Program-made: the position numbers
Shown here: positions 6,001 to 12,000 of the stretch, piece after piece
Numbering within the stretch: position 1 is the stretch's first letter
Layout of the letters: every line of letters starts with the position of its first letter
Assembly: GCF_041248615.1 (NCBI RefSeq)
Contig: NZ_CP158425.1
Origin: Escherichia coli
GTDB lineage: Bacteria > Pseudomonadota > Gammaproteobacteria > Enterobacterales > Enterobacteriaceae
Reading direction: 5' to 3' (one strand)
Length of the DNA: 64,000 bases

Positions 6001-9000
6001 AAAATGATAAAGAAAAAAGCCTGAACGATGCTACCCCGCCAGAGGTGCAGAATGACATCCGCAGCGAATCCACTGAAAAATCAAAGGAAATGGGTCGTTC
6101 AAGGTACTCATCTATCGCGATGATCGATTACTTCAATGCAATCGAACGTCTGTGCAAAGAGAAAGAAATTAACCCGGAAAATATCGATCTGAGCTTCAAA
6201 GTTCACTGGCTCAGAAACGCTGTTGGCGGCTCGTTTGCAAGGTCACAGGAGATGTTCGCGGAGTACCAGAAGTATGTTAAAGAGGTTCCTGAAGAGGCCC
6301 GTTACCTGGATATACCCGATGAGGTAAAGGTTGCACTCGGCGATATTATCTCGTACATCACCTGGCACTACCGTAGAAGCTATACCGCAATACAGAATGA
6401 TAGTGTTAAAAAAGCTGAAGCACGTAGCATGCAGCTGGAGGAGGAGGTAACGCAGCTGTTACAGCGGCTTGAGCAAAGCGCTACCGATATGGATGAGCTG
6501 AAACTTGAGAATCAGGCACTACAGGGTCGATTAGAGATCCGGGACAGTACCGTCAAGGAGTTAGAAACAAGGCTGAATGTTGCCGAAGCAGAACTCGAAA
6601 CCTGCCATCACCAGTTAGATAGCACACGGCATGAATTGAGCCTCGCACAGCAGTCAAATGACTCACTCTCCCAGCAACTGGCTGAACGTAAAACAGAGAT
6701 CGCTGGTCACCTTGAATATCAAAAAAAGCTGAACGAAGAGATCAACACGCAGCGTTCTGATAACGCCGGTCTTTCCAGACAATGCGACCAGTTAAGTCAG
6801 ACTGTGTCAGATACAAAGGCAGAGAGGGACAGGTTTGAACAGGAATTGATTGCTGCACAGAACCTTTGTACTGAGCTGAAAAGTGCACTGTCCGGGAAAG
6901 AGGGTGACCTGGTGGCGGTGAATGCCGAGCTTACTGAACTCCATAAACTAAACGAGTCGCTGAGCGCCGACCTGAATAAAGTAACTTTGGTCAGCCAGGG
7001 CTATGAAGCGGAAGTGGCTGAACAAAGCAATGAACTCAAAACGCTCCAGGCCAAAGTAATGAAGCTGGAAGCTACCCTGGAGGCGGAGAAAACAATCTCA
7101 GAATCCCTAAAAGGCACCATTGATACATTAACTGGTGCAATGGCAGGGGGAGGTACTGGAAAGTCAAAACAGCCGCGTAGCAGAAAAACATCATGATAAA
7201 TGAAGCCAGGTTGATACACTTCTCTGCATCCCCTGGCACATAAGAACTTCTGCGGACATTCAGCCCGTCCGCAGGAGTTTTCGTCCTTCAGTCAACAAAT
7301 GCACTACCTTTTTTGAGTCTCCACTTTCCAGAGCAGAAAACACGTTACCGATTCTACCAACAGCTTGTATCTGAGTGATAACCCCAGTCTTGTAATCATC
7401 TAGGATCCCTGACAGGAAAGCGTTCAGTTTTGTCTGTTCGCTTAGCGAAAGCATGTAGGACATTTTTTCTCCATTTTAAGCAGGTGTGTCAGTTGAAAGA
7501 GGTTTGCGTGATTCTGGAAAATGAGGCAGCACCATAGTTTCAGATGCTGTGGTCGCATCCCAGTGCCACCATCCATAAGGCCCATATTCACGGTTGTAAT
7601 AATCTTTTTTGAGTTGCTTTCGGGCCAGATAAGCAGGAGTGGCCATACCAAATACTTCCATCGGGAACGGCTTATCGCTTTTTGTGTCGAGCAGGTAGAA
7701 GTCAGGGAACACCTCACTAATACTCGCATCATAACGCATGGGCTTAACGTACTGCCGGTGCTCTGCATCCAGCTTTTCTGCAACAACCGCCTCATAGGAG
7801 GAGTCCAGAGGTATCCAGTTCTCGCTAACGTGCATCAGCACAATTTGATGAGCTCTTACAGAAGGGCCTCTGCCGGTTACCGCAGCTGGTGACGTCAACG
7901 CAAAGACAACTATTTTCGCCCCGGATTTCCATGCTGCGTACTCCGATGAAAATCGTTTCTTTACGCTATCCCAATGGACTTCTGAATTGAAAAAAATCAG
8001 CGGTAGCCCCCCAAAATTCCGCAGGGGTAAAAATTTAAGTGGCTTCTCATGCTTTTCAGCATCGTAGCGAGGTAAAACTGACAGGAGCATGAGACGTTTA
8101 TCACTCATCGCCTGTGATGAAAGACGCTGAATTTGCGACTGAGCGACAGGTTGTTTCGGGTCAGGTACACCAATGAATAAATGGTCACCTATGCAGGCTC
8201 TGCCGGTACGAATTTGTTTAGCGGTTTCAAGCAGACGATACCGTACCAGTGAATCGTTACGTTTCCCTGCCATTTTCGGGTACCAGACATTCAGACCAGA
8301 CTCTGTCCACAAAAGACTAAGCAAGCCCAGGAGGGTCATTGAGGCCTGACCTCCTTCTGGTCGCTGAACATGGGGCAGGGGAGGCACTTCTGATTTTTCA
8401 GGAGGATCTTTCTCTGTCATACCGATACCGAGCCTTACAGCCATATCACCTTCGGTTGTAATCCGGACCACACCACTCGCATATCCTTTCAGGCCGGTAT
8501 GCCGGGCATCAAGGGAGAAGAATACACAGGAAGGATCATGCTCAATGCCCGTGTTAGCGGCTTTGACGAGAATAAAGGCATCACCGTTCGGTAAAGCACG
8601 AACATAAAGTCGCTTTTCTCCTTTTCCACGACATCCGCAGGTGATGACTGATTTTTGACCTGAGGTGTGGTGTGCCTTTTTAAGAGCCGACTGCCACCCT
8701 TTAGCAAACTCATCCTGCGTTTGAAAGTCAGGTGAATACCTTTTGACGTTTGGATCGTCGTCGTAAGCAATCATCACTGCGAATTTTTGGCTCATAGTAG
8801 TCTCCTAAACAGGAAGTTTAATATCCCAACCAGAGCAACACTTCCTGAGCGTCATACTGTTCCTTTACGCCCATGTCGCTAAAGAATTCTTCGAAATCTG
8901 TTTCGGGAACGCAATGCCTGGACAGTTCTTGTAATGCTCGTTCTTTAGATACCGTCTCACCTTCAGCTGATTCGAAATACGTCATGGTTGACCTCTGACA

Positions 9001-12000
9001 TTATTACAACAATCTTAAGCATTTAAATTGATGAAGGAGCTCAGGTCAGCTGACTTCGTCGTAAAACTGCCGCAAGCGCTGGGAGGCTGCAAATTCAATT
9101 CGTGACTTCAGCAGTTTGGCGACGGCCGCAAAGACATCAACGACCACGGAGTTCCCAAACTGTCTGTAAGCCTGTGTATTGGACACAGGGATACGGAAAA
9201 CACTTTCCCCGGGTTTATCGAAGCCCATTAGCCTGCTGCATTCACGTGGCGTTAGCATGCGTGGCCGACGGTCCATGTTGTATGTGTTATGGAAATCAGT
9301 TTCTCCCAGTTCATGAGACCAACCCCGATCAATAAGAATTTCAGATCCGTCTTTCATATAGCGGCTTGAGAGGGTTCTGGTGACACTATTAACATTGGAA
9401 GGATCTACTAGTCCAAAACCAAAACCATTGCCTTTTGCCGCATGTTTCTTTGCATAGTTGTATAAGTACTCCCAGAGTTTAGGGGAGAGGATGTATTTAC
9501 TATCTACGCTCGGATCCAGTAAATCTGAGAGAGAAGGGCGCTTGTCCGGATAAAAGTCTTTAATGTCTCTCAGAGTAAAACCGTCTTTCAGACGTAGGTC
9601 GCGGCGAAAACCAATAAGGACGATACGTTCACGGTGCTGGGGTCGGAAATGACGGCCATCGATGACTTTAGGATCATCCGCGCCCGTGCTTTCGCTGTTT
9701 GCGACGTCGTAGCCAAGCTCATCGAGCGTTTTCATGATGATGTTAAAGGTATTACCCTTATCGTGACTCTTCAGATTTTTTACGTTTTCCAGAACAAAAA
9801 TTGCAGGTTGTTTTGCCCGGATGATCCTGGCCACATCAAAGAAGAGCGTACCCTGAGTGTCGCACTCGAAACCGTGTTTGCGACCCATAGAGTTCTTTTT
9901 ACTGACACCGGCGATGCTGAATGGCTGGCATGGAAATCCCGCAAGAAGAACATCATGATCCGGGATAGAGGCATCGATAAATTTGTATGCCTCGTCATCA
10001 GTAACCTCGGGCCGGTTGCTAAGAGTGATGTCACGGATGTCTGAATTGAAGCGGTGCTCGTTCTCATCGCAATACCAGTTCGCCCGGTAAGTACGGCTGG
10101 AATAAGTATTCCATTCGCTCGTGAAAAGACATTTACCACCGATGGCATCAAATCCGCTTCGCAGTCCACCTATCCCTGCAAACAGATCGATAAAGCTAAA
10201 GTGCCTGTCCTCATAATCAGCAGGTCGTGAAGGTATTAAAGTCTGTAGATAGCGTCCATCTGCGATACTCAGCTCACAATGCTCAGGTATGCATGTAACC
10301 TGACGTTTAAGGGATGCACGGGACCAATTACTGCCATTTTCATCATTTAATACCTGAGCCAGATATTTCAGGTCATAAATGGTCGAAGCTGTTAACAAAG
10401 TTTTGTGGATCAGAGATGGTGTTTTATCCACATCATTCAGGTCTGTCTCAAGATCATGAGTGTAACGTTTCATCCAAACTCTCTCAGGAATAATATCTTT
10501 GAGATAGATTAACACGCTTAATTTGGATTATTTTTTGGTTCAGGTTCTAAATTTATTGTGATTATTCTGCCTTTAAGTTGCAAAAAGATTGGTTTTAAGC
10601 CCGCCCATGAAATAATGACTTGTTAAAATACTGCCTGTAAATAGGCTTGTGGATACATGTCTGTACTCAACAAATCAAGGTGAAATGATGTTTTTTTTAA
10701 CAAAGTTACTTTTGCCCATCATGATTGTTGTATTCCCAGTGGCGTCCTGGGGGAACTCAACAACTTTTGAGGCAAAGGTGGTTAAGATTGTTGACGGTGA
10801 CACCATAACTGCGTTGGATGCTCAAAACACAACCATCAAAATACGGATGTATGGTATAGACGCTCCTGAATCTAAACAGGCTTTTGGCCAAAAAGCAAAA
10901 CAGGCCTTAACCACAGCTATAGCAACTAAAATCGTTACCGTGATAGACCATGGTACGGATATCTATGGCCGTATGTTAGGTACCATCTGGTTAGATGGAT
11001 ATGATATCAATGCCTCTATGGTGGACAGTGGATATGCGTGGGTTTATCGGTTCGAAGATAACGCCATTGTCCCTGGCTATATCAAATATGAATCCGCAGC
11101 ACAAAAGGAGGCAAAAGGGTTATGGGCAGACACCAACCCTGTCCCACCATGGCAGTGGAGACAGGCAAACGAAAAGCCCAGAAAGGTGAAAGAGAAGAAA
11201 TAACCATGATGAAAGAGCCTCATCCGTTACTTCAGTTGGTACTAAACGATTCCGGTCGTCTAACCATGCCTGTTTATTATAGAGATCAACAGTATTGCCC
11301 GACTTGCCTTACAAAGGTGTTGAAGAGTGAGGATGGAAGTTTGGCGCACCTCGGGGAAATAAATCAAAATACATGTAGACCTTCTATTTCAGTAGTTGTG
11401 ACAAAAGCAATTATTGAAATGTTATGTGACGGGGAAAAAATATATGTAAATCCAATACGACACCGAGGCCGGGTGCTGGCACCCTCAGTAATTTTTTCTC
11501 CCGACACTCACACTTTCAAACCGTTTATAAATACAGACTATCAGCCTGTGGGAGCAAACTGGAAAAGTGAAAAGGGATATAAACTCGGTCTGTTTTATCT
11601 CAAAGATCGAGCCAACTCTATCAATAAAGAGGAATTTGATTTCATTGCCGTTATAGACCCTGAGGCAATGCAGAAAGAATTTATTTCGGCCTGGTCTGAG
11701 GTTGATGAAAAAAATCCATTGGAAACGCTGAAGCAGATCTTACGATCTAAAAACAACTCTTCTTTATGGGTAAAATGGCCTGGCAAAATTGAGCATGCGC
11801 AAAAAGGAAATTACAACGAAAATTACTGGTTCGATTATCAATCTGATAATCAGGAAGTGAACTGTACGGTCTCTGTTGTAGGTATCGAAGGTAACAGTTC
11901 CGGTGAGACAATTTATAGATTGCAAACTTTGCTAAAGCGTAAGCTCAATGAATATCAACTGGTTCGGTCTTTAGGGACTATTATGCTTCTTGATAATACC

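Follow-up and report, generated by a model that had tools for sequence, protein, structure and literature searches.

A Dcm orthologue and an independent DUF1173 gene with a nuclease-type fold stand side by side in the backbone of IncHI2 plasmids

Does a DNA methyltransferase gene that is closely followed, on the same strand, by a gene for a protein with a nuclease-type fold form a restriction system with it, or do the two merely share a place on the plasmid? The question is raised by four consecutive genes in a 64,000-nt stretch of Escherichia coli DNA (the window), which corresponds to positions 96001-160000 of plasmid p14408_M1 (NZ_CP158425.1; IncHI2, MOBH, MPF_F). The block consists of dcm, an open reading frame (ORF) of 55 codons (orf55), a gene for a 439-residue protein of the DUF1173 family and an ORF of 67 codons (orf67). 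A first-pass annotation had proposed that the 439-residue protein is the effector of a methyltransferase-linked restriction or defence module, or that the genes form a stealth or anti-restriction module expressed on entry. Here, we find that DUF1173 is a family independent of Dcm, and we favour, with about even confidence, the explanation that IncHI plasmids carry two independent neighbours, an orphan Dcm that is protective and a nuclease-like gene typical of conjugative elements.

An ORF list of the window confirms the four genes on the minus strand: dcm (9046..10515), orf55 (8818..8985), the DUF1173 gene (7476..8795; a basic protein of 439 residues) and orf67 (7260..7463; 67 residues). The gaps between them are 60, 22 and 12 nt, as first described except for the middle one, which had been given as 23. 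Read from the GTG at 10515, dcm encodes 489 residues; its true start is probably the ATG at 10473 (475 residues), because RefSeq places the start there and no Shine-Dalgarno sequence precedes the GTG. Ribosome-binding sites stand before the other three genes: GAGG before orf55, AGGAG 7 nt before the ATG of DUF1173 and GGAG 6-7 nt before the ATG of orf67. Matches to the 3.7-kb block occur in 1,210 plasmid records (at 99% identity or above in 1,130) and in 289 of 5,426 complete E. coli genomes. The annotation is the same throughout, namely a DNA cytosine methyltransferase, a hypothetical protein and a DUF1173 family protein, and 'dcm' serves as a map landmark in IncHI2 papers (PMC9599605); literature searches on an IncHI2 methyltransferase, on CCWGG together with IncHI and on the IncHI2 leading region otherwise returned nothing beyond this landmark use. 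The block is thus a conserved and already annotated part of the backbone of IncHI2 resistance plasmids. The order dcm-orf55-DUF1173-orf67 is kept in IncHI2, in IncHI1 (DUF1173 81% identical to the window copy) and in a Photorhabdus contig (82%), and in two metagenome contigs with DUF1173 at 61% identity a 144-residue gene takes the place of orf67. With its order conserved across lineages, the arrangement is real and under selection and is not a chance run of ORFs.

By sequence comparison, the methyltransferase is a true full-length Dcm orthologue. It matches Pfam DNA_methylase (E 5.6e-75) and DNA_meth_N, the Dcm N-terminal domain, and scores 845.7 bits against NCBIfam PRK10458 (cut-off 710), covering model positions 14-468 of 472. 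It is 65% identical (79% positives) to K-12 Dcm, gapless over 438 residues, in agreement with the resemblance throughout that had been noted from the start, and it matches the Shigella Dcm structure (PDB 3me5) with an E value of 9e-194. The C5 methyltransferase motifs are all in place (FAGIGG at around residue 112, PCQ at 195, ENV at 243 and QHRER at 293), and the top PADLOC model is 'orphan methyltransferase'. The variable region, which contains the target recognition domain (residues 293-420, from QxRxR to motif IX), is also 65% identical to K-12 Dcm, and this strongly suggests that the enzyme would be specific for CCWGG. In K-12, dcm shares its 3′ end with an overlapping vsr gene. In the window, the unrelated orf55 stands at that place, and tblastn with E. 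coli Vsr finds no vsr in the whole window (best E 0.2, far from dcm), so the expected partner is indeed missing, as first reported. Furthermore, Dcm orthologues (E <= 1e-100) occur on 3,802 plasmids, 2,660 of them at 60-80% identity, mostly without DUF1173; on the IncN plasmid pMUR050, the Dcm orthologue stands alone between IS26 copies.

The 439-residue protein, to which the first pass had ascribed a strong ribosome-binding site and a CGCRGKG motif, both of which we find, belongs to DUF1173/PF06666 (Pfam E 5.7e-39, residues 26-393), and the motif corresponds to residues 53-59. A zinc-type Cys2-His-Cys module forms its N-terminal part, followed by a middle domain and, at about residues 329-413, a C-terminal fold of the PD-(D/E)XK type. 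Two family alignments were used, one of 35 members and one of 128 representatives of 50%-identity clusters. In the latter, Cys53-x-Cys55...His86-x3-Cys90 is invariant (C53, C55, H86 and C90 in 128/128), and these four residues presumably bind zinc. An AlphaFold2 model built on the 35-member alignment is confident (predicted local distance difference test score, pLDDT, 88.7; predicted template modelling score, pTM, 0.90), and its secondary structure (helix 333-344, strands 366-368 and 377-382, helix 387-404 and strand 410-413) fits an alpha-beta-beta-beta-alpha-beta core. The C-terminal domain therefore has a PD-(D/E)XK-type core fold, a core for which the first pass had advised looking, and it is nearest to those of Vsr/RAP, VRR-NUC, Bax1 and Hjc. 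The position of E335 is acidic in all 128 representatives, and K351 (126), D365 (118), D370 (125), E380 (118) and K396 (119) are nearly as well conserved, with P364-D365 and E380 kept in at least 92%.

The full model of DUF1173 has no match in the PDB at E <= 0.001 (Foldseek); the 128-sequence profile gives only chance matches, to Vps29, against PDB sequences, and the single sequence gives none. Among the 128 representatives, 27 match Pfam DUF790 (Bax1) at E <= 0.1, two of them at E <= 0.001. Residues 317-403 weakly match (E 8e-5) the C-terminus of the candidate defence model PDC-S68 (1,221 positions), and beyond this domain match PADLOC-DB holds no restriction or defence model for DUF1173. 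The only functional paper that literature searches on DUF1173/PF06666 returned is a fold-assignment study, which reported the N-terminal CxC...Hx3-5C motif and a profile-profile (HHsearch) link of the C-terminal region to the PD-(D/E)XK nucleases DUF790 and DUF1064 (Laganeckas et al., 2011; PMC3045609); no published function was found.

The distribution of DUF1173 bears most directly on the question. In tblastn searches, DUF1173 is found on 3,316 of 72,556 plasmids, 2,425 of which are typed as conjugative, and in one of 50,697 phage records; the copies on about 1,890 plasmids are less than 60% identical to that in the window. Gene context was sampled by hand, including 14 non-IncHI loci (Pseudomonas, Massilia, Enterobacter, Acinetobacter, Burkholderia and Rhizobium among them), and at none of the 14 does a methyltransferase adjoin DUF1173; in two of them, a C5 methyltransferase lies at a distance of 6-7 kb. 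Its neighbours there are par, rep, toxin-antitoxin, umuDC, H-NS and type IV secretion system (T4SS) genes, and on a Pantoea plasmid DUF1173 heads a same-strand array ArdA-SSB-DUF905-ParB-PsiB-PsiA. Klebsiella IncHI1B plasmids carry a DUF1173 gene (42% identity) that faces the same thermonuclease gene as in the window, with PsiA 2 kb downstream and with neither dcm nor orf55. In the Photorhabdus tasmaniensis contig JASNMP010000008.1, dcm retains only residues 5-157 and 437-489 (5107..5669 of the extracted locus); the internal deletion of residues 158-436 removes all catalytic motifs and leaves the 5′ and 3′ ends, and despite it neither DUF1173 nor the two small ORFs are shortened. In many K. 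pneumoniae plasmids (148-339 kb), the DUF1173 homologue is annotated in two pieces, which cover 69% of the query, and is apparently a disrupted gene; its function is therefore dispensable there. Together, the distribution, the gene context and the Photorhabdus deletion argue against a nuclease that must be balanced by Dcm.

Both small ORFs are real genes and neither is an obligate partner of DUF1173. The orf55 product is acidic, as first described (isoelectric point 4.2, net charge -9). Its identity across the four lineages is 40-62%, with WLGY kept at the C-terminus, and it is always encoded 22-27 nt upstream of DUF1173 in them, with a strong ribosome-binding site in the gap. It has no Pfam match and matches phrog_25588 over its full length (E 1.8e-24). 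In about 32 Pectobacterium phages of the genus Phimunavirus, this family is gp02, the first rightward early gene; gp02 of phage Nobby (796..954 of the extracted locus) is 54.5% identical to orf55. This position suggests an early, host-directed role. Plasmid pQBR57 carries orf55 without dcm or DUF1173, and an obligate partnership of orf55 with DUF1173 was rejected, since each is widespread without the other. The orf67 product is 59-70% identical in IncHI1 and Photorhabdus and has no PHROG, PADLOC or NCBIfam match; indeed, PADLOC-DB has no match for either small ORF. The orf67 family occurs on 1,820 plasmids, also without DUF1173, for example after a resolvase gene in Klebsiella IncFIA/IncR plasmids. 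In most RefSeq copies, including those identical to the window, orf67 is unannotated, and in copies 98.5% identical it is annotated as a hypothetical protein. The ratio of nonsynonymous to synonymous substitution rates (dN/dS) is 0.17 for orf55 and 0.08 for orf67 where dS could be computed, dS being saturated between lineages.

How, then, would the two main genes work? In the explanation that we favour, Dcm most likely methylates the inner (second) C of CCWGG on plasmid and host DNA, so that DNA exported from a donor would be modified in advance and would resist EcoRII-type restriction; it would do so with neither a restriction partner nor Vsr. The stealth role put forward in the first pass is thus plausible for Dcm, seen as an orphan methyltransferase with a protective function. 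Beside it, orf55 and DUF1173, perhaps with orf67, would form a tightly coupled unit. DUF1173 may bind zinc through C53, C55, H86 and C90, and its C-terminal fold presents a candidate acidic site (E335, D365 and E380 together with K351 or K396). The protein would then be a Mg2+-dependent, probably structure-specific DNA nuclease, which may act on the conjugative element's own DNA intermediates during establishment, maintenance or repair, like Bax1 or Hjc, and it would not be a sequence-specific restriction enzyme restrained by Dcm. Several observations weigh against this explanation. The lysine position of (D/E)xK is occupied by Phe or Trp in DUF1173, with K351 and K396 conserved elsewhere within the C-terminal domain; a distant branch of the family (P0040-P0043) has neither D365 nor E380; and the active-site signature was judged not to be conserved across the family (PMC3045609). 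Furthermore, a C5 methyltransferase lies 6-8 kb from DUF1173 in two further lineages, and the adjacency of dcm and DUF1173 over four diverged lineages (61-82% identity) could reflect a functional link. CCWGG sites are also not avoided in the window (133 against 111 +/- 12 expected from shuffles), which in itself speaks neither for nor against a protective role. A bolder extension, which we put forward as speculative and rather unlikely, is that DUF1173 represents an unrecognised nuclease class of conjugative elements, with a new zinc-containing N-terminal fold and a Bax1/Vsr-like catalytic domain, which is needed for the establishment or maintenance of transferred DNA, may be regulated by orf55, and in IncHI may be tied to the 5-methylcytosine made by the adjacent Dcm, for example through deamination or mismatch intermediates.

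In a restriction-modification or defence module, a DUF1173 nuclease would attack DNA that lacks Dcm methylation and Dcm would protect the carrier; in favour of this, a methyltransferase gene is tightly followed on the same strand by a nuclease-fold protein, in an order conserved in four lineages. We consider this highly improbable, and the module first proposed is not supported, since DUF1173 occurs independently and has stayed intact in Photorhabdus where dcm is internally deleted. None of the 14 sampled loci representing the roughly 1,890 plasmids with divergent DUF1173 has an adjoining methyltransferase, the split genes of K. pneumoniae show no sign of methyltransferase linkage, and PADLOC offers a single weak domain match. 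In addition, the hosts are already Dcm-methylated, so that restriction at CCWGG would add little against DNA from other Dcm-proficient enterobacteria. A type II system was likewise rejected: the 14 loci, the Photorhabdus deletion and the many Dcm orthologues without DUF1173 are at odds with an obligatory linkage of endonuclease and methyltransferase. A related idea is that DUF1173 takes the place of Vsr and nicks the T:G mismatches that arise by deamination of 5-methylcytosine at Dcm sites. This would account for the missing vsr, which always overlaps dcm in the chromosome; in an hhalign alignment, E335 and P364-D365-F366 of DUF1173 fall on E25 and P50-D51-F52 of Vsr, and C5 methyltransferases lie within 8 kb of DUF1173 in three of about 15 sampled lineages. 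However, the alignment is not significant (hhalign probability 0.7%, BLASTP E 28), and His69, the catalytic residue of Vsr, is unmatched by any conserved column of the DUF1173 alignment. A methyltransferase is missing from the vicinity of most DUF1173 loci, DUF1173 is intact where dcm has decayed, and the usual hosts, E. coli and Salmonella, already have Vsr, all of which makes such a replacement very unlikely.

Two further explanations were considered. In one, which we also regard as rather unlikely, Dcm, an orf55 product that serves as a DNA mimic or host-nuclease inhibitor, and DUF1173 would jointly neutralise the defences of the recipient early after transfer. The high acidity of orf55 and the place of its homologues as first early gene in T7-like Pectobacterium phages fit such a role, T7 itself carrying Ocr at that position, as do the leading-gene array of ArdA, SSB, PsiB and PsiA headed by DUF1173 in Pantoea and the proximity of PsiA in Klebsiella plasmids. 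Against it, the IncHI2 block lies at least 24 kb from mobI, MobH and TraD with T4SS genes between, a denser array of small ORFs stands beyond the relaxase, DUF1173 is nearly absent from phages, unlike general anti-defence genes, and orf55, orf67 and DUF1173 each occur without the others. In the other, DUF1173 would be a catalytically inactive DNA-binding protein, a zinc module joined to a degenerate nuclease fold, for example a regulator or an accessory to partition or segregation. We think this improbable, although the family as a whole has no conserved PD-(D/E)XK signature (PMC3045609), the (D/E)xK lysine is missing and the distant branch has also lost D365 and E380, and although DUF1173 often lies beside parA/parB, rep and H-NS genes; retention of E335, D365, D370, E380 and K351 in 92-100% of the 128 representatives is hard to explain without a metal site, and a related domain forms the C-terminal module of the candidate defence protein PDC-S68.

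Signals in the sequence bear on whether the four genes are transcribed together, and it is plausible that dcm heads a four-gene operon. The co-expression argued from tight spacing in the first pass stands in so far as the genes are closely packed and no terminator-like hairpin turned up between them in a pattern scan of the minus strand. The first such hairpin (7250..7274, minus strand; a G+C-rich stem of 9 bp) overlaps the stop codon of orf67 and sits in the convergent gap with a plus-strand coiled-coil gene; its RNA fold has an energy of -20.8 kcal/mol (z -1.5) and a weak U tract. At the dcm-orf55 junction, the length of the gap differs between lineages, from 12 to about 140 nt, and in IncHI2 the gap holds a promoter-like site (9000..9027, minus strand; TTTAAA, 16 nt, AATAAT, with an upstream TG). 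A second promoter-like site lies upstream of dcm (10612..10641, minus strand), between it and the divergently transcribed thermonuclease gene. Promoters and hairpin alike are consensus matches only, and promoter-like sites are no more numerous than in shuffled sequences.

The block occupies 103-106.5 kb of the plasmid record, and mobI, the MobH relaxase and TraD lie at 168-175 kb. After the resistance insert is discounted, at least 24 kb separate them, with TraG_N, TrhH and other transfer (T4SS) genes between, and beyond the relaxase, as seen from the block, small ORFs on one strand are densely arrayed. A location of the block in the IncHI2 leading region is thus unsupported by the gene map, given this distance from mobI and MobH and the T4SS genes in between. 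Outside the window, in NZ_LT599829.1 (166.6-169.4 kb; 10606..13384 of the extracted locus), a mobI(A/C)-type gene stands just upstream of the MobH relaxase gene, after an intergenic region of 760 bp, which, by analogy with SXT and IncA/C elements, we take to be the expected place of the origin of transfer (oriT).

Divergent from dcm is a gene of the thermonuclease (SNase) family with a hydrophobic N-terminus (10688..11203, plus strand, from the RefSeq start; ORF from 10649). The same gene faces DUF1173 in IncHI1, Klebsiella IncHI1B, Photorhabdus and the metagenome relatives, with or without dcm, so that in the IncHI-type lineage it accompanies DUF1173 more constantly than dcm does. On the other side, a DUF4942 gene (5176..5994, plus strand) overlaps a gene for a 401-residue coiled-coil protein (5991..7196, plus strand); both converge on the block and keep their position in all four lineages. 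The coiled-coil protein has weak matches to SMC, LmuB and JetC that are probably compositional, and DUF4942 matches phrog_38825 (E 2e-100), a larger DUF4942 protein being found near DUF1173 in one unrelated locus. Farther out lies a plasmid H-NS family gene (1735..2139, minus strand), and such a gene is found only a few kb from DUF1173 not just in IncHI2 but also in six or more of the other loci sampled, from different lineages; umuDC also recurs near DUF1173. In the window, a multiresistance insert of about 37 kb (around 16000..53000; G+C 0.58-0.67) interrupts the backbone between the block and umuDC, and carries tet(A), a class 1 integron (aadA2-cmlA1-aadA1-qacL), sul3, strAB, aph(3′)-Ia, aac(3)-IIe, blaTEM-1, Tn3-family elements, IS26 and others.

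The block belongs to the conserved backbone of IncHI2 plasmids, which are among the main plasmids to carry mcr-1, mcr-9 and multidrug resistance. Its Dcm part is ordinary, and the useful result is a negative one, namely that the pair does not behave as a concealed system of restriction or defence. DUF1173 has a wider reach, being present on about 4.6% of sequenced plasmids, among them IncHI1/HI2, Klebsiella IncHI1B and plasmids of Acinetobacter, Pseudomonas, Burkholderia and Rhizobium. What is new for this family is a confident model and a candidate active site; the block itself was already known and annotated. If DUF1173 proved necessary for plasmid establishment or stability, it would offer a broadly distributed, plasmid-specific target.

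How does the block compare with known systems? Its Dcm is collinear over the full length with E. coli Dcm and with plasmid CCWGG methyltransferases of the M.EcoRII type (PRK10458), including DNA_meth_N, the motifs FxGxG, PCQ, ENV and QxRxR and a similar variable region; beside the window dcm, both an EcoRII-type endonuclease gene and an overlapping vsr are absent. In contrast to chromosomal Dcm, it is plasmid-borne and followed by unrelated genes, and its specificity is a predicted one. A parallel in setting is provided by the orphan methyltransferases dcm1-3 of IncC plasmids, likewise solitary C5 methyltransferases in the backbone of large conjugative resistance plasmids, and such enzymes are presumed to guard the DNA of the plasmid against nucleases of the host (PMC11628540). 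Here, however, the plasmid is of the IncHI/MOBH type and the enzyme is a true Dcm orthologue and not a distinct C5 methyltransferase, the protection being putative. DUF1173 shares with Vsr a PDF strand and an acidic residue in the preceding helix that align in register, and both lie beside dcm. Vsr has a structural zinc site, and DUF1173 has a zinc-type motif; in DUF1173, however, the motif is in a separate N-terminal domain. DUF1173 is also three times larger, shows no significant similarity and no conserved equivalent of His69, and mostly occurs without a methyltransferase. A further likeness is to Bax1 (DUF790), a structure-specific nuclease that partners the XPB helicase in archaea, to which DUF1173 is linked by Pfam and HHsearch and which is also a multi-domain protein. 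Unlike Bax1, DUF1173 is not regularly paired with a helicase (only one sampled locus has a helicase, of the UvrD type, next to it), carries a different N-terminal zinc module that has no solved relative, and is restricted to bacterial plasmids and integrative elements.

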